A stretch of DNA of 64,000 nucleotides from Acidimicrobiales bacterium (GCA_965207755.1 OZ242297.1:83384-147383); one strand, 5' to 3'. Positions 4,976-31,146 are shown, numbered from the stretch's first letter. A program made the numbers and translations. Notes: generated by a model not told the origin, from the sequence alone.

Positions 4976-5362
4976 TGGCTTCGCGCGTTTCAGGTCGTGT
5001 GAGTGTGTCGAGCAGCGCCCAGTTGGGCTTGCCGGCGTAGAGCGGGACGCGGATCCGGTAGTTGGCGAAGTCAGTGCCTGCGCGGAAACGTGGGGAGCGG
5101 GGTGGTTGAGGGTCAGCTTGCCGACCCTCAGAGCCATCTACGACATCGACGACGCCGAAGTGGGCGCCGCCACCGTGAACCAACTCGCCTGAGATCTTCA
5201 AGACCCCGGCCTGCCCCCGAGATCAACCGGCTCGGACGCACCCTGTGGACCTGGCGGCACCAGATAGCCAACTGGCACACCGCCCGAGTCACCAACGCCG
5301 CCAACGAAGCCGCCAACAACCTGATGACACGCGTCAAACGCGTCGCGTTCGGGTACTGACTT
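4976..5362. mobile_element. Back-to-back ISL3-family fragments: minus-strand transposase tail plus end (4976-5072), solo IS end (5077-5114), plus-strand transposase C-terminal fragment (about 5190-5362)
   Basis: The minus strand reads TDFANYRIRVPLYAGKPNWALLDTLTRP. The plus strand reads PEINRLGRTLWTWRHQIANWHTARVTNAANEAANNLMTRVKRVAFG. Both are typical ISL3 transposase C-terminal motifs. The end motif cctgcgcggaaacgtggggagcggggtggttgagggtc recurs at four other sites. Confidence 0.7.
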
Positions 5363-12356: not shown

Positions 12357-12895
12357 GAGCCTTCGCGAATTCGTGGGGAGCGGGGTGGTTGAGGGTCCCC
12401 GTTGAGGGGTCGGGGCCCTGCTGGGATCGGTGATTGACACACCACTGATCCAGGAGGGCCTCGATGGCTTCTGATGTTGTGCGGGTGCGGCTGCGTGAGA
12501 CACGCGTGCTGAGAGTGCAGGTCGGCACGCCGAGCGAGCTGCGCGTGGAGATCGAGTCGACGGTGAGGCGCCCGCGGTGCCCGGCGTGCGGGTTCGGTTG
12601 CGCACGGGTGCATGACACCCGCCGACGCGACATTCGCGACGTTGGGGTGTCGGGGCGGCGCACCACGCTGGTTCGGCGCCGGCGACGGTTCCGCTGCGGG
12701 GGCTGCGAGCACCGCTTGGTCGAGGGCCACCCCGGGTTCGACGGCCGCCTGAGGCGGCGTCTGGCCCGGCGGCTGGTGGCCGACGCCGAGGTCAATGAGC
12801 CCGGTTACGTGAAGATGAGGACTCGCTCCAGCCGGTTCACCGTGCCGGTACAGATCGACATCTTCGACGCTCCCACAGCCGGGAGCGACGCCTGA
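12357..12895 (+). mobile_element. ISL3-family (subtype 1) left end plus N-terminal transposase fragment
   Basis: The end motif gagccttcgcgaattcgtggggagcggggtggttgagggtcccc (12357-12400) is followed by ORF 12464.. with the zf-ISL3 pattern RCPACGFGCARVHDTRRRDIRDVGVSGRRTTLVRRRRRFRCGGCEHRLVEGHPGF. The rest of the transposase is absent. Confidence 0.75.
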
Positions 12896-12896
12896 A

Positions 12897-14243
12897 GTGC
12901 CTTACGACGGTGAATATGCCACGGGCCATACGCTCGCTCGACTGGTTGCCAACCCGGCAGTGCGTGACTTCGACGGTGAGATCAAGAAATCCGCATCCAC
13001 CGGTGCTGGAGCCCTGCCCGCCACCATCGCACCACGCCGCGGGTCGACAAGAGTTAAGCGCCTCATCGCCATAGACGGCTCGACTGTGACGTCGAAGGTC
13101 GAGAACGGCCACCCAGGCGCGGAGGCTTCGCTGCTGAACATCGCCGCGGTCGTGATCGCGTTGGCGAGGTTGCGGGAACTAACCCAAATGGGCAAGAACG
13201 CCTCCGAGCCGATCCCGAGCCCCGCCGCAGTCAGAGAACTCGAGAAGTGCGACACCCTCAGCGCCGTGCTGCCCGGACGCAACGTCATAGGCAAGTCCAC
13301 CGGTGCGGACACCCCAAGAAGGTTCTTCCGTCAAGTCGTGCACCGCGAAATCAGCGGAGCGACCCTCTCGGGCGACCACGAGACCCTGCTGGAGACGCTG
13401 CGAGCCATCACCAACGACCGGTCGGCCCCTATCCAGTGCCCGGGCGAGTCCTGCGACCAGCATGTCACGCCGCAGTCTGAGCCGACGAACTGCGAAGCGT
13501 GCAGAGAGACCGTGTACCCCTCGGACTCACTGCGCTGCCACGAGAGATTCGAGGACTACGGCAGTAGCGAACAGGCCTTCACCATGGTGAGGATCGTCGT
13601 CGAGCACCTCTCGATGGTCAACCTGATCCGCTGGTTCGAGAGGCACGACCGGTTCGACGTGCTCGACGGGATCGGGTTCATCATGGACGGTCCGCTGGCC
13701 ATCTTCGGCATGGCAGCGTGGCTCAAGAAGCACATACAAGACGAGCTAGCCCGGCTCCACCGGCTCTCCCTTCACAAGGGCGGAGCGGGAGTGCTCCTGC
13801 TGGGAGTCGAGAAGCACGGGATGTTCATGGACCACCTCGAAGCGCTCGACTGGTCCGCGGCCCGCGGCGAGCGCGGCCGGCTGCAGCCGGGCACAGTGAT
13901 GGCCCCCGACGTTAGCTACATCCACCAGCACATCGCCTTGCGACCGCCGGACGCCAAACCCTACGGGCAGGCGACCTACTACGGCCGGCACCTGATGTAC
14001 AAGTCACAGAGCGGACAGCACGCCGCCTTGACGCTTCCGATTGTCAATGCCCAGGGAGCGGACCCGGCATGTGTGGAGGAGGGTGCTTACCCGCGCGCCG
14101 GCGACGCCCTGGACCTCATCGACGAGTTGGGCACCCACCTCTACAAGGACGGGTTCGCCCCGTTGGCGCGGGCCCATCTGCACGCCGCGGTGCCGCTGCA
14201 CCGCGGCACCGAGATACTGGCCTCCATCTTCTCGGACCGATGA
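12897..14243 (+). CDS. NurA-like nuclease with inserted zinc ribbon (candidate restriction component)
   Basis: GTG start preceded by GGGAGC. It carries RLIAIDGSTVTS and GFIMDGPLAIFGM (the NurA D-G-S / D-G-x-L acidic motifs) and a Cys cluster CPGESCDQH...CEACRETVYPSDSLRCH. The stop overlaps the methyltransferase start (ATGA). Confidence 0.55.
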   Translation: MPYDGEYATGHTLARLVANPAVRDFDGEIKKSASTGAGALPATIAPRRGSTRVKRLIAIDGSTVTSKVENGHPGAEASLLNIAAVVIALARLRELTQMGKNASEPIPSPAAVRELEKCDTLSAVLPGRNVIGKSTGADTPRRFFRQVVHREISGATLSGDHETLLETLRAITNDRSAPIQCPGESCDQHVTPQSEPTNCEACRETVYPSDSLRCHERFEDYGSSEQAFTMVRIVVEHLSMVNLIRWFERHDRFDVLDGIGFIMDGPLAIFGMAAWLKKHIQDELARLHRLSLHKGGAGVLLLGVEKHGMFMDHLEALDWSAARGERGRLQPGTVMAPDVSYIHQHIALRPPDAKPYGQATYYGRHLMYKSQSGQHAALTLPIVNAQGADPACVEEGAYPRAGDALDLIDELGTHLYKDGFAPLARAHLHAAVPLHRGTEILASIFSDR

Positions 14244-15436
14244 CAGCCGCCGTCACCAGACCGACGCCCGACTGCGGAGTGGGGTTCGCCACCCCCGAGG
14301 CCCGATGGGCTCGTCTGGGTCCCTACTACGCGATGTTTCCCATCAGTTTCGCCCAGGATGCCATAGACCGCTTCTCCCAGCCCGGAGACCTGGTCTTGGA
14401 CCCGTTCTGCGGCCGGGGCACCGCCCCATATGCCGCCATGGTCGCCGGCAGGGACGCCCTCGGCTGCGAGATCAACCCGGTCGCCTGGGTGTACGCCGCT
14501 ACCAAGACAGCCCCCGCGCCCGGCCCGGAGGCGGTCAAGGACCGCATCCGCGACATCGCCGAGTCCGCCTCGCCGGAGGACCGCGAGCCCAGATCGGAGT
14601 TCCAGGCCCTCGCGTTCTGCCGGACCGTGCTGGGGTTCCTGCACGCCGCGCGCCGCGGGCTGCGATGGCGGCACGACACCATCGACCGCACAGTCGCCGC
14701 GTTGATCCTCCACTACCTGCACAGCAAGATCCCCCAGGGGCTCTCGAACCAGATGCGCCACTGCCGGGCCATGTCGCCGGGCTACTGCGTGCGCTGGTGG
14801 AACGACAACGGCTACCAGACACCCCCCGAAGTCGACCCCGTCAGCTTCCTCAACGACCGAGTCGACTGGCGCTACCGCAGAGGAATCCCCGAGAGATCGC
14901 ACAGCAGCGGCGTGACCGTGACCCTCGGCGACTCTGCCGCCGACCTGGAGCCAGTGGCCAAGCCGGCCCGGCTGGTAGTGACATCGCCCCCGTACAGCGC
15001 GGTGACCGACTACAGAGCCGACAGTTGGCTGCGGCTGTGGGCGATCGGGGAAGGCCCCGCCTTGCCGAGATGGGACACCAAGCAGAAGTACGTCGACTTG
15101 GCCGCGTACGGCACGATGCTGCGGCGAGTGTTCTCGGCGACGGCACGCAGAGCACACCCCGACGCGGCGTGGCTGGTGCGCTGCGACGCCCGCGAGCGAA
15201 CATTCGACGTCGTCCTCCCCCTGCTGGGCGAGATCGCCGGCGGCCGAGACGTCGACGTGAGCCCTGCCCCGTTCCGGCGGCCCACCCAGACGTCGCTGTA
15301 CGGCGACCGGGCCGCGAAACCCGGCGAGATGGACCTGCTCGTGCGCCCCGGAGCCACGAGAGCACGCCGACCTGGCCAAAGCCGAGCCCCGAACGGCTCC
15401 GCCGCCGCCCGCTGCACACCACAGGCCGAATCGTGA
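14240..15436 (+). CDS. N6A/N4C DNA methyltransferase, motif I before motif IV (alpha-like order)
   Basis: The ATG at 14240 lies inside ORF 14069..15436. LVLDPFCGRGTAPYAA (AdoMet motif I) is followed about 200 aa later by LVVTSPPYSAVTDY (catalytic SPPY). Confidence 0.8.
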   Translation: MTAAVTRPTPDCGVGFATPEARWARLGPYYAMFPISFAQDAIDRFSQPGDLVLDPFCGRGTAPYAAMVAGRDALGCEINPVAWVYAATKTAPAPGPEAVKDRIRDIAESASPEDREPRSEFQALAFCRTVLGFLHAARRGLRWRHDTIDRTVAALILHYLHSKIPQGLSNQMRHCRAMSPGYCVRWWNDNGYQTPPEVDPVSFLNDRVDWRYRRGIPERSHSSGVTVTLGDSAADLEPVAKPARLVVTSPPYSAVTDYRADSWLRLWAIGEGPALPRWDTKQKYVDLAAYGTMLRRVFSATARRAHPDAAWLVRCDARERTFDVVLPLLGEIAGGRDVDVSPAPFRRPTQTSLYGDRAAKPGEMDLLVRPGATRARRPGQSRAPNGSAAARCTPQAES

Positions 15437-15807: not shown

Positions 15808-16024
15808 ACGAAAGTCCAGGTCAGAGTACATGTCCTGACTTTCGGCTCCAAAGGGTCTGACGCGATATTCTAATGGATATTCTGATATGCTGTCGGGAAC
15901 CGGTCGGGGAACGGATAGCGGGAAGTGCTACGCTCGTCATCACAATACAAGACATGACCCGGCCCCGGTGGCAGCCGAGGCGGGGCGACGTCACCAATTC
16001 CAGCAGGGCCTCGACCCCTGCTCC

Positions 16025-16063
16025 GGGACCCTCAACCACCCCCTCCCCACGTTTTCCTGCAGG
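16025..16063. repeat. solo ISL3 subtype-1 end (right-end orientation), copy R3
   Basis: gggaccctcaaccaccccctccccacgttttcctgcagg is the inverse of the end at 12357-12400. About 30 further bp inward also match the left end. Confidence 0.75.
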
Positions 16064-16249
16064 TTCGACCAATATAGTGTTTGCTGACGCTAAGCTAAGT
16101 CTCAAGGCTTGTCCTGCCAACACGTTGAGAGCACGATCCGAGTGGCCACCGAGAACACGCTTTGGCCCGTACCATCCAGTATCAACAGAATATGTGTCCG
16201 AGCGTGAAGTCACGAGTGACACAGCTCCTGTAAACAATCGGATGCTCAT
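16064..16249 (-). pseudogene. 5' stub of a fifth operon gene, cut off by the ISL3 end
   Basis: ATG 16249 overlaps the ImmA stop (ATGA). MSIRLFTGAVSLVTSRSDTYSVDTGWYGPKRVLGGHSDRALNVLAGQALRLSLASANTILV then reads into IS-end sequence (EPAGKRGEGVVEGP). Confidence 0.35.
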
Positions 16250-16965
16250 TCTGTCAGTTGAGTAAGTGCTAGAGCCGAACCTCGGCGGACCGAGACTTGA
16301 GCAGGGACATCGCGCTCTTGGCCTCCAACCATGATGGCAAGATGGGTCATCACGTCGCCACCATCAACCAACGCATCCAGCAGAGGTCCAGTCTGCGGCG
16401 CAGAACGAATACGCCCCTCAAATCCCGATGGCAGTCCGGCTGCCCACCTGAAACTCCACTTGGTACCGTCGTGCTTCCAGTGCAATAGGCTTCGCTGCCA
16501 ACCTGCCACTTCGTTTAGACGGACACACGCGGATGCTAGAGATGTATTGGAGCGCCCACTAACGACACGAAGTGTATGGAGGGTCCGTGGGCGCTTATAG
16601 GCCACAGATCTAACCCAAGCCCATGGCAGAAGCAGTGCCGCAGCAAAATCCTCACAAAATCTCTCCTCCTCATCGCGGCCGATGACGTGGCGAGTGGCTA
16701 CGAGCTCCGATCTGGGATCTGAGAGCAAGGCATGGCATAGTTCATGGGCAATGGTGAAACGGCGTCTTTCTCGCGACACGCCTTCTCGCACAATGATGCG
16801 AGTTAGTCCTTCTGAACGCTCCATTCGACCATCTTCAATTAGGTGAGCCTCGATAACTTGATCCACGCCAAGTTGGCTGACAAGACGCTCAATGTCGATC
16901 GGAGGTGGGCCCAACTCGAACATCTCGGCTATCTCCTGCGCTAGGCGGCTAGCTCTTGCGTTCAC
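16246..16965 (-). CDS. ImmA/IrrE-family zinc metallopeptidase (COG2856)
   Basis: It has an HEXXH motif (FTIAHELCHALL) in the usual context, with EERFCEDFAAALLLP downstream. The GTG start overlaps the upstream stop by 4 nt. Confidence 0.8.
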   Translation of the reverse strand: MNARASRLAQEIAEMFELGPPPIDIERLVSQLGVDQVIEAHLIEDGRMERSEGLTRIIVREGVSRERRRFTIAHELCHALLSDPRSELVATRHVIGRDEEERFCEDFAAALLLPWAWVRSVAYKRPRTLHTLRVVSGRSNTSLASACVRLNEVAGWQRSLLHWKHDGTKWSFRWAAGLPSGFEGRIRSAPQTGPLLDALVDGGDVMTHLAIMVGGQERDVPAQVSVRRGSALALTQLTE

Positions 16966-17927
16966 TGTCCTGTGCTCTCATGGAGCCGATACCAGTCGGC
17001 GGGGCTGCCAAATACTAGGCGTCGTACGCCTTCCGACGACAGTACTTGCTCGGCATGCTGCATTAGCCGTTCCGCATGTGAATCACTCCATCCATTCTCT
17101 TCCTGGGAGGAGACGAGCGATTTGATTTGCCTGTATGAGAGTGGACTGCGTTCCTGGGTGAAATAATGCACAACATCGATATCCATGTTGTTACCAAGCC
17201 GAATGATCTGACTGATCGATAGCGTCGCCACGAGCAGTGGATCGCTCAAGTAGTGATCAATGTAGTCTGGTGCCAGCCTACACTGCTCAGCGGCTACCAA
17301 TTGATCGCGGTGGTTGAGACTCCTCCACTTGTACCATAGATCAGATTGAACGTGGCGATACAGTATCGACAGATTGCTACGGATTCTAGGACCGTCCTCG
17401 ATCTTGCTGCGATTGTTCTGAACAAAGAGCCGCACAACTGAGGCGAGTTGGTCTGGCAGCTCATAGAACTCCACATTGATCAGTGGATTACCTGAGACTT
17501 GTCGACTAACGTTCTCTCCCTTCGGAGACAAGTGAAGTATCGGAATGCCTTGTCTGCATGCGAGTTCAAGTTCTTGGCCAGTTCCAGAGCTTCCGCCCTG
17601 AAGCGACAAGATGATCAATGCGTCGGCTTCAGCCAACACTAGGCGAGTGTTCTGTCGGTATATGTCCCATTGGCTGGCATCGCTTGACCATGGAGCACTC
17701 AGCACGGCTGGTGCGTGAGTTCGGAACTGAGCTGGCCCGCCGTCAAATCGGGGATCCTGAATCGTGGCTACGATCTTGTCAACTTGGAAGGTGACGCTTC
17801 GACGCTGCTCGGGTGATGGGTCAGCCCGCGTAAGAGGCGACGCGATGTAGATCAACGGAAGATCGTGGTCATCGCTCCGGCGAGGAGCCTCGCCAGCCGC
17901 AAATGGAAGCTCGAGTTCACCCTTCAT
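16962..17927 (-). CDS. nucleoside 2-deoxyribosyltransferase-like domain fused to a C-terminal XRE-type HTH
   Basis: The N-terminal half has LIYIASPL ... AEADALIILSLQGGSSGTGQELELACRQGIPILHL (NDT-like Rossmannoid pattern with a conserved Glu). The C-terminal half has an HTH-like LVATLSISQIIRLGNNMDIDVVHYF. A good SD (AGGAGAAG) sits 5 nt before the ATG, inside the Doc 3' end. Confidence 0.5.
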   Translation of the reverse strand: MKGELELPFAAGEAPRRSDDHDLPLIYIASPLTRADPSPEQRRSVTFQVDKIVATIQDPRFDGGPAQFRTHAPAVLSAPWSSDASQWDIYRQNTRLVLAEADALIILSLQGGSSGTGQELELACRQGIPILHLSPKGENVSRQVSGNPLINVEFYELPDQLASVVRLFVQNNRSKIEDGPRIRSNLSILYRHVQSDLWYKWRSLNHRDQLVAAEQCRLAPDYIDHYLSDPLLVATLSISQIIRLGNNMDIDVVHYFTQERSPLSYRQIKSLVSSQEENGWSDSHAERLMQHAEQVLSSEGVRRLVFGSPADWYRLHESTGQ

Positions 17928-18345
17928 CGTCTTCTCCTGGTTCTACGAGACGCCGCCGGATCCAACGTCCGAGTTCCTCCTGGCTGACGGTGCCAGCCGC
18001 CACTCCCTCGATCATCGCCACAGTCTCGTCACGTTCCACCCCATCGTTTGGAGGACGTGCCCACTCATAACCATTGCGGTACACAAACTCAAGCAGGCAC
18101 ACGTAGCCGACGCGCTTGTTGCCGTCCAGCAGGGGGTGACCCTTGATGAGCTGAAACGTCATAGCCGCGGCCTTGTCGGCGAAGCACGGGTAGTACTCGA
18201 CCTGCCCAATGCCAGCATTAGGAGCCGACAGGGCGTGCTCAGCCATGTGCAGTCGCGGCAGGCGCGCGAGTGCCTCGACCTCGATCCCGGTGATCTGCTC
18301 CGCGATCAACAGGAACTCGGCAAGGTCGAGGCACTCCACGCTCAT
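17917..18345 (-). CDS. doc: Doc (death-on-curing) Fic-fold toxin
   Basis: It carries the Fic/Doc motif HPLLDGNKRVG. The ATG at 18345 is the internal start of ORF 17917..18489, 1 nt after the antitoxin stop. Confidence 0.85.
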   Translation of the reverse strand: MSVECLDLAEFLLIAEQITGIEVEALARLPRLHMAEHALSAPNAGIGQVEYYPCFADKAAAMTFQLIKGHPLLDGNKRVGYVCLLEFVYRNGYEWARPPNDGVERDETVAMIEGVAAGTVSQEELGRWIRRRLVEPGEDDEG

Positions 18346-18346
18346 G

Positions 18347-18562
18347 TCACTGGGCGAGCCTCTCAAGCACGACGCGCTCCTCGTCGAGGATGCGCTGGAG
18401 CCGTGCCTGAAAGGCGGGGTCGCGCCGTCGCTTCTCGATGTGCTCAGCGATGGCGGCGCGGATCGCCTCCGAAGTGGACACGCCGTCAACCCGCGCGACC
18501 GCGTCGAGTTCGGCGGCCTGCTGGGCGTCTTGGCGGATGGTCGTAGTGCGGGTGTCTGCCAT
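18347..18562 (-). CDS. ribbon-helix-helix antitoxin-like protein (Phd-position partner of Doc)
   Basis: The ATG at 18562 is preceded by AAGGAGGAGG. MADTRTTTIRQDAQQAAELDAVARVDGVSTSEAIRAAIAEHIEKRR is RHH-like. Confidence 0.7.
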   Translation of the reverse strand: MADTRTTTIRQDAQQAAELDAVARVDGVSTSEAIRAAIAEHIEKRRRDPAFQARLQRILDEERVVLERLAQ

Positions 18563-18681
18563 GGTGTGCCTCCTCCTTGAGCGGTGCTTCATCTGCACAT
18601 ACATCTATCAGTAGGCAATAGTTATTGTATCATGCATACGGACCGTGTGCAACCCATGCCGGTGCTTGCCGCCCCTGAGCA

Positions 18682-18722
18682 GGGACCCTCAACCACCCCA
18701 CTCCCCACGTTTCCGCGCAGGC
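18682..18722. repeat. solo ISL3 subtype-1 end, copy R4 (same orientation as R3 and R5)
   Basis: gggaccctcaaccaccccactccccacgtttccgcgcaggc. Confidence 0.75.
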
Positions 18723-18791
18723 TCATCATATATAAGCGGCGCGCCGCGCAGTTGATCGGGATGGTCCGGGAACCCGCTGCACGCAGGACGC

Positions 18792-19796
18792 TCAAGCGAG
18801 ACAGGCGGGGCAGGCAGCCGATCGTCTCGATCTCGGCGGACAACGGACGCGGGCCGATCGCGTGTCTTCGTCTGCTTGATGCAGACTCGCAACTCTCGTC
18901 TCCAATGTTTCTCTCTCGCATTCACGGGCAAGACCGCGAGCACCCAACACTTGACAACTCAGTGCTGCTACTGCTTGCGCGTAGCGGAGCGGCGCGGTCA
19001 GGTCTGATCTCTTGACCTCCTCCGGCACGAGCGACGGGAGTGCGTCCAACAACGCTGCGGTTGTCCAGTCTCCGGCGCCGCCTGCATCAATTGCATGGAC
19101 GGCGTAGGGGGGCACATGGTACCAGGCCCCACCGTTTTGCCGCCAGTACGCACCGTTGGCACCATCGGTATACACATTTGCTCCAGGCGATCCATCAAGC
19201 AGACCGCTCGTGGGGTCAAGTCGGTTAGCCGAGAACTTGACGATGTGGGCAAGCTCAAGCAGACGCCTGAACCTGGGGCTGCTGCCTGGCGTGGACGGCT
19301 CGAACACCACGAGCCCGCCGCCATCCCGAATGTGCTCAGCCATCAGAACCGCGGCCGCCGAAACCCTATCCACGAACAGTACGTCGGGCCGATTGATCGA
19401 ATCGACCAGCCTCTCCGCGAAGTCAATCGGGATGGCTCGAAACTGCGCGAATTTGCGTCCGCACTCCGGACAACCGAATCTGAAGCGGTGCGACCCGTCG
19501 CATACCTCGTGGATGACTACAGGGGTTGTGGAGTCCGGGCGCCGCAGTAGTCCTCTGGAGGAAACGCCTGCTCTCAACAGGTCGGCTCGCAGGTGATCGC
19601 CAGCTGGATCATCGCCGTGTAGAGCCGCAGTCGCTGCATCCCATCCGAGGTAGGACAGGTTGGCTGCGACGTTCCCCGCTGTTCCGCCAGCGCTGTGGCC
19701 TAGTCCGGTTCGATGAACGAGCACGTCCAAGACCACGTAGCCGACCGTGAGGACAGCCTTGCGATCTGGCTTCTGGGTCGGTTCTTGCCTCGTCAT
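18792..19796 (-). CDS. PfkB-family (ribokinase-like) kinase with a zinc-ribbon insertion
   Basis: GGTAGNVAANL (N-terminal GG motif) and AIDAGGAGDWTTAALL (PfkB signature 2) are present. The insertion reads HRFRFGCPECGRKF. The ATG at 19796 (MTRQEP) was chosen within ORF 18792..19829. Confidence 0.75.
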   Translation of the reverse strand: MTRQEPTQKPDRKAVLTVGYVVLDVLVHRTGLGHSAGGTAGNVAANLSYLGWDAATAALHGDDPAGDHLRADLLRAGVSSRGLLRRPDSTTPVVIHEVCDGSHRFRFGCPECGRKFAQFRAIPIDFAERLVDSINRPDVLFVDRVSAAAVLMAEHIRDGGGLVVFEPSTPGSSPRFRRLLELAHIVKFSANRLDPTSGLLDGSPGANVYTDGANGAYWRQNGGAWYHVPPYAVHAIDAGGAGDWTTAALLDALPSLVPEEVKRSDLTAPLRYAQAVAALSCQVLGARGLARECERETLETRVASLHQADEDTRSARVRCPPRSRRSAACPACLA

Positions 19797-19936
19797 TGGT
19801 ATGGAGCGCCAGCCAGCCACAAGCAGCAAAGCTGGTTCGCCTCGCTGAAGGTCTCAAGGCTAACCTCTGGCACGATCTCGTACTCGTCCGCCGCGGCTGC
19901 GGCAATCGGGATGGTCCGTTCGTAGGCCGCTAGCAC

Positions 19937-19962
19937 GGCGCCCTCCACCGGTGGAGGGCGCC
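19937..19962 (-). terminator. perfect 26-bp GC palindrome (candidate intrinsic terminator or operator) between the AlkB-like and PfkB genes
   Basis: ggcgccctccaccggtggagggcgcc is its own reverse complement. It lies about 160 nt downstream of the AlkB-like stop. No U-tract follows. Confidence 0.4.
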
Positions 19963-20120
19963 GGTGTTGGTCAGCGCCCTGCTCGGTATGCAGGCGTAGA
20001 GCAGGGGCTCGGATTCGGCAAATGACGTGCGCAACGCGACTCGACGTACGTGGCTGGCGGCTTCTGTGCCCGATGTCCTGCTGGAGCCTCCGTCTCTCTG
20101 CGGCGGTGCAGCAGATCCGG

Positions 20121-20753
20121 TCAGGTCTGCGCTCGCCGGGTGTGTGCGATGGTGCGGAACGTGATCGAGACGCGTCGTTGGCGCTTGGTCCGTTGGCCGT
20201 TCCAGGTGTCGGTTTGCCGTTTCGCGATGCCGTGGCGCCACTTGTGGCGGGCGTCGCCGTGGAGAAGCACGAGGCTGCGCGGCTCCAAGCGCTGCACATG
20301 CTTGTCCCCGGTCGACTCTCGACAGAAGTCCATGTTGACAGCCGAGCCCAGGCTGACGGTCGCGACGACGGGGCCGAAGCAGTCCCTGTCGATGTGGGGG
20401 GCGATCCCCTGCCCAGGCGAGTACTCGTTGATGATCGCCTGCTCGAACGGCCGGTCGGGGTCGAGTTGCTGCTTCGCTTCCTCGGATGCAACTTCACGCA
20501 CCGTGTGCGACAGTCGTGCCAGCCACTCTGGCAGCGGCCCGATGCGGGCCGTTTCGTCGAGGCTGCGACTGGTGTAGTCGTACTTGTACCCGAAGTGCAT
20601 CACACGCCGGGAGAGGTCCGTGAGCCACTCAGAGCCGTCGATCCGCGCGAGCAGCCCGCCCTCGTCGCGGGCAGACAAGGCGTCGGGGTGGTAATCGAGC
20701 CCCAAGGGAGCAGCCGCGGGCTGCGCGTCCGTCAGCGACAGTTGCAGGCTCAT
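20121..20753 (-). CDS. AlkB-like Fe(II)/2-oxoglutarate dioxygenase
   Basis: IINEYSPGQGIAPHIDRD (HxD), LLHGDARHKWRHGI (distal His) and RVSITFR (2OG Arg) are present. ATG 20753 overlaps the methyltransferase stop (ATGA). Confidence 0.8.
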   Translation of the reverse strand: MSLQLSLTDAQPAAAPLGLDYHPDALSARDEGGLLARIDGSEWLTDLSRRVMHFGYKYDYTSRSLDETARIGPLPEWLARLSHTVREVASEEAKQQLDPDRPFEQAIINEYSPGQGIAPHIDRDCFGPVVATVSLGSAVNMDFCRESTGDKHVQRLEPRSLVLLHGDARHKWRHGIAKRQTDTWNGQRTKRQRRVSITFRTIAHTRRAQT

Positions 20754-21667
20754 GTGCGCAGCATCCAGTGCTCTGCTCGTACGTCCCACAGTCGAGATTG
20801 CTCGTCCCACCATATCGGGCCGTCACCGCGGGCGGAGCCTGGAAAACGCCGCCGCACTCGAACATCGATGCGGTGCTGTTTCTTGAGGACGTCGGCCTCC
20901 TTGAGCATCCGCTCGAGGTCGACAAGCGCGCCTCCGCTGAGGTTCGCGGTGGTGTAGATGAGCTCGACGGCCCGGCCCGCCTCGCCGACGGCCCGCTCGA
21001 TGACGGACGCCCAGGAGGCTATGTGAGCTGGCCTGACGGTTCGTTGGTGGGCCACGTAGCTGAACGCGAACAGCAACCGGTCAACGTCGGTGAAGTCGAC
21101 ATCATCGAGCGAGTCGATGCAGGCGTCTGATCTGAAGCCGGCGCCAAGACACCCAAGGACCTCCCTGCCGAGCTCCCGCATCATTGGATTGGGGTCGAAA
21201 GCCCGGTAGTCGACCCGTCGGCGCTCGCTCCGTGTGAGAGCCTCGCCCAGCCCGACGGCCACCGTGGCCGCCCCGGCGCCGATGTCCACAACCAACAGGC
21301 GCTCGCCCTTCCCCGGTGGCGAGCAACACGCCTGCTTGTACACCTCGCGGAACACATCGGCATGACCCCGCTGATAGTAGAAGGAGTCATACAGCGCATG
21401 GGAGTCAGGCGCATCCGCCGCCAGTTGTCCCTGGCGCTTCGGGGACTCGGCGGCGTGCCGCTGCTCGTCTGGGGTCTCGCTCCATCGGCACACGATGGCC
21501 TCTGCGAATGCTCTGTCGTGGTCCACCGCCGCAGCGTACCTCTCGTGTGCTGTGTGGCTAGCTCGTGCGCCCGGCTCATCGCCGCCCGCCAACACGCCGC
21601 CCACGCCGCCCACGCCGCCAACGAGACCGCCCGGGTGGCCGCCGCCACCATCGGCGGGACGTGGCAT
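20750..21667 (-). CDS. class I SAM-dependent methyltransferase, substrate unknown
   Basis: Motif I is RLLVVDIGAGAATVAVGL and an acidic motif II is YRAFDPNP. The start is uncertain (ATG 21667 or GTG about 21595). The N-terminus is Gly-rich. Confidence 0.65.
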   Translation of the reverse strand: MPRPADGGGGHPGGLVGGVGGVGGVLAGGDEPGARASHTAHERYAAAVDHDRAFAEAIVCRWSETPDEQRHAAESPKRQGQLAADAPDSHALYDSFYYQRGHADVFREVYKQACCSPPGKGERLLVVDIGAGAATVAVGLGEALTRSERRRVDYRAFDPNPMMRELGREVLGCLGAGFRSDACIDSLDDVDFTDVDRLLFAFSYVAHQRTVRPAHIASWASVIERAVGEAGRAVELIYTTANLSGGALVDLERMLKEADVLKKQHRIDVRVRRRFPGSARGDGPIWWDEQSRLWDVRAEHWMLRT

Positions 21668-21935
21668 CGATCTGATGCCTGAAGGCTCGGTCCACGCGCG
21701 ACGCGTCGGTAGTGACCTCTACCGCGAGGACCTTCCCGTCATCGAGCCGAAGGTCGAAGTCGTGCATCCCCAGCGCTCCGCCTGTATCGCGCGGGCGGTG
21801 CTCGCCGCCCAACAGCTGCTTCAGCAACTCGGCTGCTCGGCGCTCCTCGGCGGGCATGTCGGCGAGAAGCTGAGCGTGGGCGACGATCTCAGCCATCTCG
21901 TCGTCGGTGAGCTTCATGGACGGCATGGATACCAC
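21576..21935 (-). CDS. small hypothetical protein; 3' end overlaps the methyltransferase 5' end out of frame (possible frameshifted fusion)
   Basis: MKLTDDEMAEIVAHAQLLADMPAEERRAAELLKQLLGG...GMHDFDLRLDDGKVLAVEVTTD is coding-like. The last 30 codons are Arg-rich shadow of the methyltransferase frame. Confidence 0.35.
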   Translation of the reverse strand: MVSMPSMKLTDDEMAEIVAHAQLLADMPAEERRAAELLKQLLGGEHRPRDTGGALGMHDFDLRLDDGKVLAVEVTTDASRVDRAFRHQIDATSRRWWRRPPGRSRWRRGRRGRRVGGRR

Positions 21936-22172
21936 CTGCCGGAGCCGTCAAGACGCGGTGCATTGAGCTTCGAGCGCCCCGGAAGCCTCAGTCCCATGCG
22001 CCACCCGGCGGGCACCGGATGTTGTCGGTCGGGTCGTCGCTGCAGTCAGCGACCAACTGTCCAAGGCCGGGCATATGAGCAGAGCCAGCGCCGGCGCCGG
22101 CGCCTCTTGGCGAGCCAATGGGCTACTTCCTGAGCGGAAGACAGTCAGCACCGAACCCCGCGCCGACGGCGA

Positions 22173-24608
22173 TCAGCGCGATCCACCCCCCTCCCCACGT
22201 CTCCGCGCAGGCTCACAAGGTTCGGTCGGTGTCAGGGCCAATTCGCAGAGGTCGATTCCAAGCTGCAGATGGTCTCGAGTGCGTTCATCCAATGAGCCGT
22301 CTCTGCGGACGATGCGGGCTCTTGCCGACCCGAGGACCTGTGCCACTCCTTCTTGGGGCAGTTTCTCTTGGGCGCCGGCGAGCAGCAGTTCGGGGAGCAG
22401 CAAGTCGAAGTCGAAGTCTTGGCCCTCCAGATGTTGCAAGGAGTCGCAGCAGTCGCGGCTGTCATGCCCCCACCAGGCCTCCTGCGGCTCGCACCATCGA
22501 AGAATGCATGCGTGGATCAATCCATCGAAGTAGGACCGCAGTACACGCCGAAGATCGAACTGAGCCCAGTAGGGCGCACCCCGTTGGCTCGCCCGGATGC
22601 GAGCTGATTGCATAGCGGATCCCACCGCGCAGAGGGTCTCGCGGCTGCCCAACTCCTGCCCGAAGTATGAGTGCGGCAGCAGTATCGGGCTGTCTCGACC
22701 CAGCAGGGTTTGCCCCGGCGCGGGGCCGTCTTGCAGTTCGTCGAGGCGCGCTTGCAGTTCAGGCGTGGCCAGGCCCTGCTTGTTGGCGGCGAGGTAGGTG
22801 TTGCGTTCCGCAACGAGCGGTGACCAACTCGGGAGGTGGCTCAGCCACAGGGCCAGCAGGCGCTTGTTGCCGTCGGCGTCGGTGAGGTTGTTCCTGATGC
22901 TTGCCCACAGGCGATCGTTGTCAGGGTGGGCGTGGAGTACCAGGCATTGGAAGTTGGCGTCGGGCCATCGTCGGCGTGCGGTAAGGAACATTCGCTGGCA
23001 GGTGAGGCCGGTGCGCGCTCCGAGCATGAGGATGAGCACATCCGGAGAATCGGCGCTAGGCGGCCTGTCGGGTGCGTCGCGGTCGGGGTCCGGTGTGTAG
23101 GCGATCCAATCGGCATCGTCAGACACAAAGCCGTGTTTGCCCAGCGTTTCAGCGAGAGCCTGCCATTCATCGTTGGTCAAGAGACGACGTTCTCTCGCGT
23201 CGTACATCACGACGGAGGCGCGCGACGCTACAAGGTCACGCGTGCGCTGGACAAAGTCCCGTATCGTGTCTTCCCGGTCGCGCTTCGGGTAGCGCTCGAA
23301 CTCAGCCAGACGGTCCTCGATCAGAGTTGCCGGGGATGCCTTGACGAGCAGCGTCGGCTCGAAGAAGATCAGTTCTTCTCGAGCACGCACTGACTCTGGG
23401 GGCGGTCGCGTCCCGGTGGGCCCGACGAGGTTGACGGCGCTATCGGGCGCGCTGTGATATGCCTCCCAGACGGAGGCGTTCCGTCGAGCGTCGAAGATAT
23501 CGGGCACGATCAGGTCGGGCTCGGGCAGGACCAAGGCTGACATGGCTCGTGGATTGATCGTCACGAGACGTGCTGTACGTGCGCTCCGGCACAAGCGGCA
23601 GGGCTGACCGTCGGGCTCAGCGCCTTCCGCCTCGCCCAGACCCAGCCAGGGAGCCTCGATGGTCCGCTGGGGCGGGGGATCCTCGACGATTCGCGGAGGT
23701 GGGGGCTCCACAGAGATGGCAGCCGCGCTGGACTGCTGTCTGGACACGAACTGCTCGATGCGCACCGTGGGTGCACCCAGCGCGGAGAGGGCGTTCAGCA
23801 GCCGCTGGGCGAACCCTCCGCTGTCGCTCACCGACATGAGCCCGAGCATCGGGCTGTCCGGTGAGATGCCGAGCAGGCTGGTGTGGAGTCCCAGGCTGCT
23901 CGACGGGTACCGGTCCAGTGAGAGCACCCCTGCGATCCCAGCCGACGAGTGCGAGACATGGCGATGGCGCTCCGCCGCCCGCTGGAGTTCACCGACCACA
24001 GGCATCAGCGTTCCGATGTCCATGACCGCCGTGGTCAGGGCTTCGGGGTTGAGGGCACCGTAGAGCCAGGTCGCGAGAGCGGGGGCGGCCCTGAGGTCTT
24101 GAAAGGCGTCGGCTAGCCGGATGAAGGTCGACGTGTGCTTTCCCGACGGGAGCACATAGTGGTATGCGTCCGGGTGCCAGAGCGCGTGTCCCCAGTCAAG
24201 GAATGCTTCCATTTCGATGGCGCGGGCCCGGGCAAGCAGCACCGGCTCGTGTCCGGTGCGGTCCTTGAGGCGGTGGCTCCACACGATCGTCGGGGGTGCG
24301 GCAACCTCGAAGACAATCACCCCCGCCGCCGCGACGGAGCCCATGGCCTTGAGTGTGGCCTGGAGAGCATCGGCCGCCTCCTCCGGCGGTGTCCACCCTT
24401 GGTCCTTGTGTCCCCAGCGCGCCAGCACCCAGTCCGGCCGGCCTATGAGGTCCAGCGGCACCGCTCGCAGGTAGCCGGCAACAGTCTCGACGGTGGTTGC
24501 CCAGTCGGCGACATCGAAAAACGTTAGGCCGCCGCCGGTGTCGTCGGCCCGTCGCGTCCGATCATGCTGGAACGGCAGGCGGGCGTACGCGTCCCGACGT
24601 TCCGCCAT
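22173..24608 (-). CDS. 811-aa protein with two degenerate phosphoribosyltransferase-like segments and a CxxC; C-terminus replaced by IS-end sequence
   Basis: ATG 24608 lies 17 nt after the GHKL stop. YHYVLPSGKHTSTFIRLADAF plus PMLGLMSVSDSGGFAQRLL resembles a PRTase hood and PRPP loop. A second loop-like segment is DVLILMLGARTGLTCQRM. A single CxxC is CRLCRS. The upstream 48 codons of ORF 22173..24752 look like shadow. Confidence 0.55.
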   Translation of the reverse strand: MAERRDAYARLPFQHDRTRRADDTGGGLTFFDVADWATTVETVAGYLRAVPLDLIGRPDWVLARWGHKDQGWTPPEEAADALQATLKAMGSVAAAGVIVFEVAAPPTIVWSHRLKDRTGHEPVLLARARAIEMEAFLDWGHALWHPDAYHYVLPSGKHTSTFIRLADAFQDLRAAPALATWLYGALNPEALTTAVMDIGTLMPVVGELQRAAERHRHVSHSSAGIAGVLSLDRYPSSSLGLHTSLLGISPDSPMLGLMSVSDSGGFAQRLLNALSALGAPTVRIEQFVSRQQSSAAAISVEPPPPRIVEDPPPQRTIEAPWLGLGEAEGAEPDGQPCRLCRSARTARLVTINPRAMSALVLPEPDLIVPDIFDARRNASVWEAYHSAPDSAVNLVGPTGTRPPPESVRAREELIFFEPTLLVKASPATLIEDRLAEFERYPKRDREDTIRDFVQRTRDLVASRASVVMYDARERRLLTNDEWQALAETLGKHGFVSDDADWIAYTPDPDRDAPDRPPSADSPDVLILMLGARTGLTCQRMFLTARRRWPDANFQCLVLHAHPDNDRLWASIRNNLTDADGNKRLLALWLSHLPSWSPLVAERNTYLAANKQGLATPELQARLDELQDGPAPGQTLLGRDSPILLPHSYFGQELGSRETLCAVGSAMQSARIRASQRGAPYWAQFDLRRVLRSYFDGLIHACILRWCEPQEAWWGHDSRDCCDSLQHLEGQDFDFDLLLPELLLAGAQEKLPQEGVAQVLGSARARIVRRDGSLDERTRDHLQLGIDLCELALTPTEPCEPARRRGEGGGSR
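22181..22212. repeat. solo ISL3 subtype-1 end, copy R5, forming the last codons of the 811-aa ORF
   Basis: atccacccccctccccacgtctccgcgcaggc. Translated on the minus strand it gives the ORF tail PARRRGEGGGSR. Confidence 0.65.
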
Positions 24609-24625
24609 CTCCGGTGCCGAAGGCC

Positions 24626-25624
24626 TCAGACCGGCGCCGGCTCGCGTCGAGTTCTCGGCCGCGGAACTGGCCCGTCGTGCGTGACGGCGTCGAGAGTCAG
24701 ATGGATCAAGGTCCCTTGCACGCCGTTGTACGCGAACTCCCGGTGGTCCCATTGCCCGGTCCGGCCTCGCCGTCCGTGATGCATAGCGCGCCCGGGCGCG
24801 AACGTCGAGATCAGGTTTATCGTGCCGTTCCAGCGAGCGGCGTGCTTCGCGACGGTGCTGAGGCCGTGGCCTGCCGTTGCGCCGATGACAGAACGGTTGC
24901 CGTAGACGGCCCCGACCAGGTCCGTGACCACATCGACGGCGATCTCGGAGTCGGGCTTGGCACTGTTGGAGAGGCAGGCGGTGTGCTCACCGCGGGCGGC
25001 AAGAGCCGCGGCCTTATCGCGCACCGAGCCCACGATCCCGACACCGTCGTCTGCGACGACGATCTGTAGACGGTTGTGGCTCCCGTGCCCGCCGCCGGCG
25101 GTGGCGCTTACGACGGCGAAGGATCGCCGGGCACGAGACCAGCGATGCACATTGTCGACCGCCTCGAAAAGGCATTGGTCGGTGTGGCGGTCGAAGCACT
25201 CCCGCTGCTCGTGGCCTGCTGCGGCTCCGAGGCCGTCGATCCAGTAGTACCGCCTGCCGTAAGGGTCCGGCACTGGCGGCTCGCGGCTCTCGAGCCGTGA
25301 CACGACTCGCATCCGGTCCGACGTCTCCAAGTCGAACTGGTCAAGGGCCAGTGTCTGGCCGACTGCCTCCACGCCCAACGCCGCGGAGACTGGAACGGGC
25401 TCGCCCTCGATCTCGAGCCCCACTCCGCGCCGGTCGGCCGCGAACACCAAGCCAGCGCGGGCCAGCCGACGTCTGACCACCAGCGATGAGGGGAGCACGA
25501 CCCTGGAAGGCGGGTCCGGGGTGCTCAGCACCCACAGCGCCAGCGCAAGATCTCCCGGCTGGATCGTGGCAGTCGAACTCAAGGCGCTGAGGATCAGTGG
25601 CTCCGATGAGTGCACCTCCGACAT
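24626..25624 (-). CDS. GHKL (histidine-kinase-like) ATPase with an unknown 150-aa N-terminal domain
   Basis: The N box is LFEAVDNVHRWS, G1 is IVVADDGVGIVG and G2 is ATAGHGLSTVAKH. A strong SD (GAGGAGGAG) precedes ATG 25624. Confidence 0.7.
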   Translation of the reverse strand: MSEVHSSEPLILSALSSTATIQPGDLALALWVLSTPDPPSRVVLPSSLVVRRRLARAGLVFAADRRGVGLEIEGEPVPVSAALGVEAVGQTLALDQFDLETSDRMRVVSRLESREPPVPDPYGRRYYWIDGLGAAAGHEQRECFDRHTDQCLFEAVDNVHRWSRARRSFAVVSATAGGGHGSHNRLQIVVADDGVGIVGSVRDKAAALAARGEHTACLSNSAKPDSEIAVDVVTDLVGAVYGNRSVIGATAGHGLSTVAKHAARWNGTINLISTFAPGRAMHHGRRGRTGQWDHREFAYNGVQGTLIHLTLDAVTHDGPVPRPRTRREPAPV

Positions 25625-27059: not shown

Positions 27060-27644
27060 TCAGGTCTGGCGGTTGTCCCTCGGGTCCCGGCACGCGTCGT
27101 AGGTGGCCTTGTCTATGTGGGTCCACGTCGTTCCCGGTACGCCCCTGGCTGAAGTGCTGCCGGGCCCCACGGGGAACGCCGACTCGAACAGCAGGTAGCG
27201 CTTCTGTGATTGGGCGATGTTCTTGGCGAGCCTCACGGCGGGTCCGAAGTCCGCGTCCTCGCTCACGATGATGGCGGCGTCGTAGCGCCTCTCGTGGGTT
27301 GCCTGTATGAGGTCGAGAGCGAGGCTCACGTCCACGCCCTTCTCTTGGCCGGCCGAGTTCACCCGCCCCGTGTAGACGTGGACGCCCTGGTTGCGGAGGC
27401 GGCGGCACTTGTTGGTCCAGAAGTTGTGCCAGAACTGATTGACAGCTGGGGCCGGGACGCCGGTGCAGAAGCGGACTTCGCTGAGCGTGCGTTGAGACAG
27501 GCGGCCCACCAGGCTGGCGGCGAGCCGCTCCACGTCGTAGCTGGGCCACGAGTACGGGGACGACCCGGCCGGCGGCACCGGAGCCCATGCGATCCTGGCC
27601 AGGTGGTAGAGGTTCTGGCCGTCGATGAGGACTATCGTGCGCAT
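27060..27644 (-). CDS. NYN-domain (LabA/DUF88-like) protein, putative RNase
   Basis: ATG 27644 was chosen. MRTIVLIDGQNLYH ... QEKGVDVSLALDLI ... YDAAIIVSEDADFGPAV are the NYN acidic motifs. Confidence 0.75.
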   Translation of the reverse strand: MRTIVLIDGQNLYHLARIAWAPVPPAGSSPYSWPSYDVERLAASLVGRLSQRTLSEVRFCTGVPAPAVNQFWHNFWTNKCRRLRNQGVHVYTGRVNSAGQEKGVDVSLALDLIQATHERRYDAAIIVSEDADFGPAVRLAKNIAQSQKRYLLFESAFPVGPGSTSARGVPGTTWTHIDKATYDACRDPRDNRQT

Positions 27645-27963
27645 GACATGAAACACCCGCCCGGGGACGGCATCGAAGCGAGCCGTCCAGCGGGCGGGGA
27701 GTAGATGACCCTGAGCGTATTGCGCCGACGCTGGCACGTCAACGCCTGCTCCGGGGACTTCGTTGGGCTAGTGGTGTGTCGTGGGTGCGGGCCCGTCCGA
27801 GAACAGGCCGGCTGCGCCCAGGGGATCGACGGCAAGCTCTAGCGGTGGTTGCAAGTGAGGGCAGTGTAGGCGCTGTGGGGTGAGTGCCAGTCGTGGAGTT
27901 TGCGGGGCATCATATTGAGGTTGTCCTCGATGACGGCGAGGGTGGCCGGGCCAACTACGTCTG

Positions 27964-31110: not shown

Positions 31111-31146
31111 TGCATCTCGCCGGTGGCGGTCCGCAGGTACTCTTCG

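Follow-up and report, generated by a model that had tools for sequence, protein, structure and literature searches.

A Doc toxin operon that carries a putative repressor–protease pair with a nucleotide-pocket domain: a candidate protease-gated module in an Acidimicrobiales bacterium

How might a toxin–antitoxin pair work when its operon also encodes a metalloprotease and a protein that joins an enzyme-like domain to a DNA-binding one? This question is raised by positions 16,064 to 18,562 of a 64,000-nucleotide stretch of DNA (the window) from an Acidimicrobiales bacterium, a sponge-associated actinobacterium (GCA_965207755.1 OZ242297.1:83384-147383). The open reading frame (ORF) table and the sequence place four co-directional genes on the minus strand. 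They encode a 71-amino acid ribbon-helix-helix (RHH, CopG-type) antitoxin (18347-18562), a 142-amino acid Doc kinase toxin of the Fic fold (17917-18345), a 321-amino acid protein in which a nucleoside 2-deoxyribosyltransferase (NDT)-like domain is followed by a helix-turn-helix (HTH) and a tail (16962-17927; the NDT–HTH protein, the conserved core component), and a 239-amino acid M78 (ImmA/IrrE/CapP-type) zinc metalloprotease with a GTG start (16246-16965). We tentatively read the locus as a self-contained, horizontally moving four-gene toxin module with a core repressor–protease pair of the DdrO/IrrE and CapH/CapP type, which would be triggered by DNA damage or phage and gated by the protease. 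This reading is possible, if somewhat short of an even chance.

The junctions are as tight as the initial annotation of this DNA had described, with overlaps or 1-nucleotide gaps throughout and coordinates that agree exactly. The RHH gene starts with an ATG at 18562, with AAGGAGGAGG just before it. Its stop codon is separated from the Doc ATG by a gap of 1 nucleotide, the Doc gene and the gene of the NDT–HTH protein overlap by 11 nucleotides, the latter meets the protease gene in a GTGA overlap, and the protease gene meets the next ORF in an ATGA overlap at 16249. Gene lengths and overlaps of the operon are the same in every related locus retrieved, and such identical spacings indicate that the layout is a conserved unit and not a chance coincidence of ORFs in GC-rich DNA. 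The operon is also AT-richer than its surroundings, as had been noticed at the outset: GC content is 0.51-0.58 over 16000-17750 (the NDT–HTH and protease genes) against 0.62-0.72 in the flanks. GC at third codon positions is lower in these two genes than in the RHH and Doc genes; a mosaic origin of the operon was considered for this reason and rejected, as the same gradient and concordant identities are seen in other loci. Sponge metatranscriptome contigs that are 90-96% identical cover parts of all four genes at a low level and provide weak evidence of expression.

The protease proposed in the initial annotation as ImmA/IrrE-like is well supported. It matches PF06114 (Peptidase_M78) with 49.6 bits against a cutoff of 22 (E = 4.4e-13), and its family profile finds IrrE (2.5e-12) and CapP (7t5t, 2.7e-7) in the PDB. 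The HExxH motif is intact as HELCH at residues 74-78 (16732-16746), and H74, E75, H78, the downstream Glu (E100/E101) and C104 are invariant or nearly so among 11 orthologues with identities as low as 29%. The protease also has matches to PHROG families, and its best PADLOC model is capP (2.1e-23). By kinship with these enzymes, it is predicted to be a CapP/IrrE-like protease that would cleave the adjacent HTH protein and be stimulated by single-stranded DNA.

Many RmrA models of PADLOC also match the protease, at 4e-8 and weaker. They point to a RosmerTA-like alternative, in which the NDT–HTH protein would be a toxin, the protease its antitoxin by continuous binding or cleavage, and the RHH–Doc pair a separate unit stacked in the same operon. 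Proteins with an ImmA domain do serve as antitoxins for many unrelated toxins, and the strict adjacency of the NDT–HTH and protease genes described below would fit. However, the capP match is far stronger than the RmrA matches, and RmrA has its own HTH fused to the protease, whereas the HTH lies on the partner protein here. Fusions of Doc-like domains to the NDT–HTH protein in distant relatives speak further against RHH–Doc as an unrelated, stacked pair. We consider the RosmerTA-like arrangement quite improbable.

If the protease has a substrate in the operon, the C-terminal half of the NDT–HTH protein is the place to look for it. A divergent XRE-type HTH is placed at about residues 194-257 (17157-17348, minus strand) by weak fold matches and transitive homology. 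The stronger evidence is transitive and comes via relatives with an HTH that Pfam recognizes. An exhaustive search found distant homologues with Pfam HTH_3/HTH_31 C-terminal to the NDT-like domain; this profile occurs in one of 68 relatives (1.9e-8) and in relatives fused to a kinase, and the HTH_3 of relative P0157 maps to residues 194-253 of the 321-amino acid protein. An AlphaFold2 (AF2) model predicts helices at residues 206-257. In a separate model of residues 172-321, with a predicted local distance difference test (pLDDT) score of 74.8, the best fold matches are non-significant but are to XRE-family proteins, with DdrO first (E 0.14), followed by C.Esp1396I, ClgR, C.Csp231I, YdaS, and lambda cI. 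Positions 165-262 of a broad family profile show weak matches to HigA3, C.BclI, and PhpD. The XRE HTH claimed in the initial annotation is supported by the HTH_3 of relatives and by weak fold matches, but it is undetectable by Pfam in the 321-amino acid protein.

Behind the HTH lies a conserved tail, E-L-A-x-G-G-V-R-R-L-x-L-x(3-4)-D-W, that resembles those of DdrO and CapH. Conservation among representatives is 92 of 98 for R303, 98 of 99 for W312, and 70 of 99 for D311. In the AF2 model the tail forms a loop with pLDDT below 50 and then the last helix. The G-V-R-R-L loop (residues 300-304; 17016-17030, minus strand) is situated about 20 residues before the C-terminus. DdrO is cut at L106|R107, about 23 residues from its C-terminus, and CapH at F82|R83. 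By analogy with these two sites, we propose V301|R302 as a candidate protease cleavage site.

The N-terminal half carries an NDT-superfamily (DNPH1/MilB-like) domain at about residues 20-160 (17448-17870, minus strand), with Y27, N93, D102, S113, E119, and S141 as key residues. Pfam and NCBIfam models gave no match to the 321-amino acid protein at threshold, and sub-threshold matches were to DUF4406, cpYpsA, and Nuc_deoxyrib_tr. The score for PF05014 is 12.4 bits, below the gathering score of 28.8; PF05014 is found at E < 0.1 in 17 of 68 relatives (best 3.6e-5), and PHROG 355 (NDT) matches the 321-amino acid protein itself with E 4e-5. The AF2 model of this protein, built on 21 homologues (pLDDT 73.5), is more decisive. 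A Foldseek search of the PDB with the NDT-like domain returned DNPH1, MilB, BcmB, BlsM, and true NDTs with a probability of 1.00 and target TM-scores of 0.6-0.79; the top matches are almost all NDT-superfamily enzymes, and phage and viral NDTs are matched in BFVD. From sequence alone, a profile of 68 diverse family members finds DNPH1/Rcl (1.5e-7) and MilB (9e-6) in the PDB. This broader family profile was needed, as a PDB sequence search with the close-clade profile only gave noise. The N-terminal domain therefore models as the Rossmann-like NDT fold that had been predicted.

Conservation in the pocket was counted over 150 cluster representatives, with those aligned in each column as the denominator. 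E119 (codon at 17571-17573), which sits in SSGTGQELE, aligns with the catalytic nucleophile Glu of this family (DNPH1 E104, in the DNPH1/Rcl "GVGYE" segment) and is kept in 116 of 129 representatives. S113 (110/129) and S141 (124/133) align in the profile alignment with DNPH1 S98 and S128', the serines that grip the 5'-phosphate (PMC10603095), and Tyr27 and Asp102 are conserved too. At the general-acid column (DNPH1 D80), the 321-amino acid protein has Asn (N93); Asn is found in 84 and Asp in 22 of 124 representatives. A structure of DNPH1 D80N with intact 5-hydroxymethyl-2'-deoxyuridine 5'-monophosphate (5hmdUMP) bound is among the Foldseek matches from the PDB. The initial claim of an NDT-like fold with a catalytic Glu holds for the fold and for the predicted Glu, with the caveat that Asn stands in the place of the general-acid Asp. 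The pocket looks built to bind, and may also turn over, a ligand of the nucleoside-5'-phosphate type.

These residues bear directly on the main rival of our reading, which corresponds to the "protease-gated effector" of the initial annotation. Here the NDT-like domain would itself be the effector, or a second one: cleavage of the tail, or release from DNA or Doc, would unleash an N-glycosidase, with Doc as an accessory. Its substrates could be (deoxy)nucleoside 5'-monophosphates, or molecules of the nicotinamide mononucleotide (NMN)/NAD+ type, with a cationic leaving group that needs no general acid, and the respective pool would be depleted. The retained E119, Tyr27, Asp102, and both phosphate-binding serines favor such an enzyme, as does the fact that the domain is closest to the true hydrolases DNPH1, MilB, and BcmB. 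NDT-like domains also serve as retron effectors. However, with Asn at the general-acid position here and in most representatives, hydrolysis of deoxynucleoside monophosphates is expected to be crippled, as the intact 5hmdUMP in D80N DNPH1 suggests, and this makes an enzymatic effector role less secure than had been assumed. Moreover, an effector that is made constitutively and is joined to its own repressor domain would have to be inhibited in some additional way. We regard the effector alternative as unlikely, though it deserves to be taken seriously, and return to it below with the relatives.

The two upstream genes form the toxin–antitoxin part of the operon. The RHH protein matches RHH_1 in Pfam with 30.8 bits against a cutoff of 20.5 (E 2.5e-7), shows weak matches to RelB-family antitoxin models, and is 76-92% identical in related loci. 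The toxin passes the cutoffs for TIGR01550 DOC_P1 (46.3 bits against 38.65; E 4.2e-12) and PF02661 (Fic; 36.2 bits against 24; E 1.1e-8), and matches PHROG 577, "Doc-like toxin" (E 2.9e-15). The Doc motif HxFx(D/N)(A/G)NKR is present as HPLLDGNKR, with F changed to L, and is kept in all close loci. The pair is a Doc toxin with a CopG/RHH antitoxin, for which a toxin–antitoxin function is predicted from gene order, the 1-nucleotide gap, and the domains. An RHH–Doc pair had been recognized from the start, and it stands. Its description as a canonical Phd/Doc-type pair is right for the toxin only, as no Phd/YefM fold was found for the antitoxin, whose model matches are RHH_1 (CopG) and RelB-type.

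Upstream of the operon, a consensus scan identified a sigma-70-like promoter (18624-18652, minus strand), with a -35 box TTGCAC, a -10 box TACAAT preceded by TG, and a spacing of 17. L005 and L008, where no insertion sequence (IS) is present at this place, share the conserved promoter region, so that the promoter belongs to the module. Between the -10 box and the ribosome-binding site, an alignment of upstream regions revealed a candidate operator, the inverted repeat GCCTAC-N8-GTAtGT (18597-18616, minus strand), which reads GCCTAC...GTAGGT in L004, L005, and L008. Inside the Doc gene, a conserved mRNA hairpin spans codons 2-30 (18255-18341, minus strand) and starts 4 nucleotides past the ATG. 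It has a minimum free energy of -52.7 kcal/mol (z = -4.65) and contains a perfect 14-nucleotide inverted repeat. The hairpin is kept in nine loci, with one compensatory CG/GC swap and several changes that preserve G-U pairs, and is found at the same place in L001, L003-L006, L009, L011, and L014. Plausibly, it ties translation of Doc to that of RHH. In a contig from another sponge metagenome (run X5), the RHH–Doc sequence is matched up to 17873 and is then followed by ISL3-transposase-like sequence (compare window 12668-12700), which suggests a population variant in which an IS disrupts the start of the NDT–HTH gene.

Since RHH–Doc resembles a known two-gene module, and so does an Xre–COG2856 pair, the operon might hold two independent type II pairs that share a promoter and have no functional cross-talk. 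The survey of relatives bears on this question. A word-indexed search gave 23 relatives only, and every one of them came from sponge or coral samples, in metagenome bins that are Acidimicrobiia-like (Ca. Poriferisocius, Aldehydirespiratoraceae). An exhaustive profile search with a cutoff of E < 1e-3 gave 384 clusters (50% identity); for 59 of them, E was below 1e-30. The clusters are almost all metagenomic and unnamed, and members are labelled in their sources as "hypothetical", "nucleoside 2-deoxyribosyltransferase", or "prophage maintenance system killer protein". In 20 of 20 readable loci, with identities as low as about 25-33%, an M78 gene directly follows the NDT–HTH gene; the P0026 clade (33% identical) and two loci of a clade with fused Doc-like domains are among them. 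The adjacency of the NDT–HTH and ImmA-type genes, which was to be looked for in homologues, is therefore conserved. RHH–Doc lies upstream in every close-clade locus whose contig extends there.

Across 47-86% identity of the 321-amino acid protein, all four genes occur together with the same overlaps in unrelated neighborhoods, and the identities of the four proteins to those of the window rank the loci in nearly the same order. This co-occurrence speaks against two independent pairs, as do the fusions described below. With the P0026 clade, which has the NDT–HTH and M78 genes without Doc, on its side, that explanation appears very unlikely. The NDT–HTH gene in L014 (5001-5976) and the M78 gene in L015 (662-1356) are each split in two pieces, and are either pseudogenes or assembly errors. 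A tblastn search of PLSDB with the window protein and a Doc-fused relative found no plasmid-borne relatives, and a kinase-fused relative gave matches via its kinase domain only.

The flanks of the module vary by genome. They contain a cyclic-oligonucleotide-based antiphage signaling system (CBASS; L005, L007), an IS and an SNF2 helicase (L001), acyl-CoA dehydrogenases (L004), integrases (L006), or Hen1/Pnkp (L003); methyltransferases, ISs, and integrases are common around the module. Since the flanks differ each time, the module looks more like a mobile cassette than like the immunity region of a prophage, a possibility that the initial annotation had raised against its own reading and that does not apply in general. 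The exception is a distant clade, L016-L018, which has Prim-Pol/AAA_25 and phage capsid genes in its vicinity. One possibility to weigh is an immunity switch of the ImmR/ImmA type that belongs to an integrated mobile element or prophage and would control excision or induction instead of serving in defense or as a toxin module. Besides these three loci, the integrases near L006 and L019, the PHROG matches of the protease, and the role of M78–HTH pairs as classic regulators of prophages and of integrative and conjugative elements (ICEs) agree with it. Against it, no structural genes of phages or ICEs lie beside the module in the window, L001, L004, L005, or L007, where the flanks differ per genome, and the module has no regulated integrase or excisionase linked to it. 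In addition, the module has a toxin of its own, and the "repressor" retains a conserved enzyme-like domain. Such a switch is highly improbable.

Fusions in distant relatives show which parts of the module are constant. Among the top 150 representatives, about 25 have lengths of 440-500 amino acids. In at least 17 of these clusters, an N-terminal Doc-like domain with a Doc profile match is fused to the NDT–HTH protein, and all of these Doc-like domains lack the catalytic H...NKR motif. The initial annotation had described Doc as fused only transcriptionally to the protease part of the operon; the connection goes further, as inactivated Doc-like domains are joined to the NDT–HTH protein itself. 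Three representatives combine a Ser/Thr kinase, an NDT-like domain, and HTH_3. An apparent Doc–NDT fusion in P0019 (L003) was discounted, as it is created by a change of frame within the C-terminal end of Doc, on a contig of 2x coverage. Variable partners around a constant pair indicate that NDT–HTH and M78 form the invariant core, and that the partner slot is variable and often holds a kinase. The Doc-like and kinase fusions count against two separate pairs. For the NDT effector, the relatives count on both sides: clades without an active Doc still have NDT–HTH and M78, but a constant core with variable partners is more typical of a regulator with swappable effectors. The two readable loci of the fused clade carry two further conserved genes after the protease (L019:8244-9843, L020:2780-4259). 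These encode proteins of about 280-320 and 207-229 amino acids that are 60-64% identical between the loci, with no significant family match and only weak AbiEi_4/HTH hints. The idea that they form an antitoxin/RES-like pair found no support in the libraries and was dropped.

Gene identities, folds, motif states, conserved linkage, and fusions can be read directly from the data, and from them we infer how the four-gene module of the DdrO/IrrE and CapH/CapP type could work. At rest, Doc would be neutralized by RHH, and RHH, the NDT–HTH protein, or both would repress the single promoter via the inverted repeat downstream of the -10 box. The hairpin at the 5' end of the Doc gene would couple Doc translation to RHH translation. 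The NDT–HTH protein may be physically associated with Doc, as the Doc-like fusions of distant relatives suggest. DNA damage or phage replication would then generate single-stranded DNA, by which the protease would be activated as in IrrE and CapP. The activated protease would cut the NDT–HTH protein in the G-V-R-R-L loop, and oligomerization and DNA binding would be lost. As a consequence, the operon would be de-repressed and Doc would escape control. Freed Doc would phosphorylate EF-Tu, which would stop translation and lead to dormancy or abortive infection. The NDT-like domain could provide a second input by binding, and perhaps slowly turning over, a ligand of the nucleoside-5'-monophosphate type. 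A module triggered by damage or infection is suggested by the hydrophobic|Arg cleavage of related proteins on single-stranded DNA, taken together with the gene adjacency, the G-V-R-R-L loop, and the Doc-like fusions.

Several observations weigh against this working. None of the HTH models in Pfam and other profile libraries matches the 321-amino acid protein or its close clade, and the model of residues 172-321 has no significant match in the PDB (all E > 0.1). Since the repressor–protease pair is located inside the operon, de-repression would also raise the antitoxin and the repressor. The strongly kept nucleophile Glu would be equally compatible with an enzyme and with a sensor. The fused clade lacks the Doc catalytic motif, and its two readable loci have no RHH gene, and so the family cannot have Doc as its universal effector. 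In place of Doc, the P0026 clade has an 84-amino acid ORF (L016:5750-6004, also in L017 and L018), which overlaps the start of the NDT–HTH gene and matches the NucS C-terminal domain (a PD-(D/E)xK nuclease) at 1.8e-4. Finally, the metatranscriptome signal could be DNA carry-over.

A more far-reaching version, which we consider speculative and distinctly unlikely, treats NDT–HTH and M78 as the core of an unrecognized, widespread class of switches that are both nucleotide-sensing and protease-gated. In this case, the pocket would detect a nucleoside 5'-monophosphate specific to phage or damage, and thereby license tail cleavage and release of a kinase toxin. The Asp-to-Asn change, which traps the substrate in DNPH1, would serve sensing, and hydroxymethylated pyrimidine nucleotides or products derived from NMN/NAD are examples of what the ligand might be. 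The recurrent kinase partners would be Doc here and Ser/Thr kinases elsewhere, and the dead Doc domains would be kept as adaptors.

Downstream of the protease gene, the initial annotation had placed a fifth gene, cut by the end of an ISL3 element. The ORF (15821-16249), its ATGA overlap with the M78 gene, and the ISL3 end are real, but its status as a gene is unsupported. Its first 62 codons (16064-16249, minus strand) have no match to the genes that overlap M78 in other loci (a 388-amino acid gene in L005 and L008-L010, a 73-amino acid gene in L006), and blastn and tblastn detected nothing in all 20 loci. GC content by codon position is flat (0.53/0.52/0.47). This stretch is missing from L007, the closest relative, whose sequence diverges exactly where the M78 gene stops. 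Without a homologue in any related locus or a coding signature, the truncated fifth gene was rejected, and the stretch is taken as probably non-coding 3' flank. The 388-amino acid protein (L005:7676-8842) has hydrophobic, probably membrane-spanning segments and no family match, and its gene overlaps the M78 stop by ATGA. In one sub-clade it is thus a real fifth gene, and a candidate for an extra effector, unrelated to the window ORF.

The ISL3 end belongs to a repeat of about 60 nucleotides with five copies in the window, each of which is a truncated left end of a single ISL3-family IS, with no right end detected. Two truncated left ends in direct orientation bracket the operon. One has about 117 nucleotides (15950-16066, minus strand), including roughly the first six transposase codons, and was defined by alignments with exact core and hairpin motifs. 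The other, of about 53 nucleotides (18672-18724, minus strand), lies directly upstream of the operon promoter. A copy of about 35 nucleotides (22180-22214, minus strand) shares their orientation, and these last three ends bracket both the four-gene operon and a block at 18734-22193. On the plus strand, a copy of about 43 nucleotides is present at 5074-5116, and at 12357-12787 a fragment of about 430 nucleotides consists of the repeat and a transposase fragment. The latter (12464-12787) encodes 110 N-terminal amino acids of an ISL3 transposase, is 64% identical to the copy in L001, and ends just before an ORF at 12897. In L001, an ISL3 transposase gene (at L001:7957) with Zn_ribbon_ISL3, HTH_Tnp_ISL3, and DDE_Tnp_ISL3 comes after the repeat, about 170 nucleotides past the M78 gene, and the IS end is at the place equivalent to that in the window. 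The repeat thus precedes ISL3 transposase genes in both, in agreement with the first description of an ISL3 end. The repeat was also considered as an RNA or attC-like element; no Rfam match was found, and it was assigned to the ISL3 left end.

Other genes nearby are of related interest. The block flanked by ISL3 ends (18792-21935, minus strand) encodes a PfkB-family sugar/nucleoside kinase (18792-19829), an AlkB-like 2-oxoglutarate-Fe(II) oxygenase (20121-20813), and two proteins without a family match (20750-21667 and 21576-21935). It could be another cassette that modifies nucleotides or nucleic acids. At 12897-15436 (plus strand), an N6/N4 DNA methyltransferase gene (14069-15436) is overlapped at its start by the gene of a 448-amino acid protein without a family match, and the two may be a restriction-modification pair. 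At 22173-25624 (minus strand), an 859-amino acid protein without a family match and an overlapping 332-amino acid protein with a weak GHKL (HATPase_c) match may be another defense-type pair. Furthermore, an rve-type integrase fragment (1193-2212), an NYN-domain protein (27060-27737), a Macro-domain protein (27884-29158), and a second N6/N4 methyltransferase (30772-32511) are present. Over roughly its first 32 kb, the window has the look of a mobilome and defense island.

Protease-cleaved XRE repressors such as ImmR/ImmA, DdrO/IrrE, and CapH/CapP are emerging as a general link from DNA damage and phage infection to the induction of mobile elements and the expression of immune genes. In the present family, the cleavable partner bears a conserved nucleotide-pocket domain and is genetically tied to kinase toxins, as an active separate Doc, a dead fused Doc, or a fused Ser/Thr kinase. 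If the proposed working is true, small-molecule and DNA-damage inputs would be integrated on one repressor, the NDT/DNPH1 fold would have a new role in prokaryotic conflict systems, and Doc would have a regulated trigger; little is understood of the signal that naturally activates it, apart from plasmid loss. We found no description in the literature of NDT combined with ImmA/COG2856/M78 and HTH, or of Doc with M78, in a search whose incomplete coverage gives no proof of novelty. The principle of a protease-cleaved repressor that controls a toxin or defense module is known; we rate the domain architecture as new, and the family as sizeable and unannotated. For this reason, naming the family would improve the annotation of many metagenomic genomes.

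Comparison with known systems places the module among them only in part. Its toxin–antitoxin part resembles Phd–Doc, in that the P1 Doc (an EF-Tu kinase) model is passed above cutoff, the motif is intact except for the F-to-L change, and a small antitoxin gene is located immediately upstream. It differs in that the antitoxin is RHH/CopG instead of Phd/YefM, and in this clade the pair is never alone, but always followed by NDT–HTH and M78. The NDT-like domain and the N-glycosidases DNPH1/Rcl, MilB, BcmB, and BlsM have in common the fold, the nucleophile Glu, the GxG-x-E loop, and both serines that bind phosphate; NDT-like domains are also known from phage defense, as retron effectors. Unlike the N-glycosidases, it has Asn in place of the general-acid Asp, is fused to an HTH and a tail like those recognized by proteases, and remains below the PF05014 threshold.

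The order of an HTH protein and then an M78 protease (PF06114), co-transcribed, is that of ImmR–ImmA of ICEBs1 and of phage Xre–COG2856 pairs. However, ImmA (169 amino acids) has no extra C-terminal domain, and ImmR/ImmA control excision, whereas here a Doc toxin is linked and element genes are not. RosmerTA (RmrT–RmrA) likewise consists of an M78 protease and a variable partner in defense islands, and RmrA is weakly matched. But RmrA has HTH and protease in one polypeptide, while they are on two proteins here, and PADLOC has no RmrT-like match, or indeed any model, for the 321-amino acid protein.

Closer parallels are found in DdrO–IrrE and CapH–CapP. IrrE (PprI of Deinococcus) is the best solved-structure match of the protease (2.5e-12), DdrO is the top, though non-significant, fold match of the C-terminal half (E 0.14), and the cleavage geometry is similar. 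In contrast, DdrO and IrrE control a DNA-repair regulon with no linked toxin, their genes are not an overlapping pair, and DdrO has no enzyme-like domain. With CapH–CapP, which regulates CBASS and further defense operons (Lau et al. 2022, preprint 10.1101/2022.04.27.489752; Calloji et al. 2026, preprint), the module shares a protease whose best PADLOC match is capP (2e-23) and whose profile matches 7t5t, a neighboring gene for an HTH with a C-terminal region, a candidate hydrophobic|Arg site near the C-terminus (F82|R83 in CapH), and defense-rich neighborhoods. CapH is a small HTH protein, whereas the HTH here stands behind an NDT-like domain of 160 residues. CapH/CapP pairs are also described as lying upstream of the operon that they control and on the opposite strand; in the module, both genes point the same way as the rest of the operon, are translationally coupled, and come at its end, a difference that adds to the points against the proposed working. 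Taken by analogy, the module probably works most like CapH/CapP and DdrO/IrrE, while it departs from the arrangement of CapH/CapP and from the architecture of RosmerTA.

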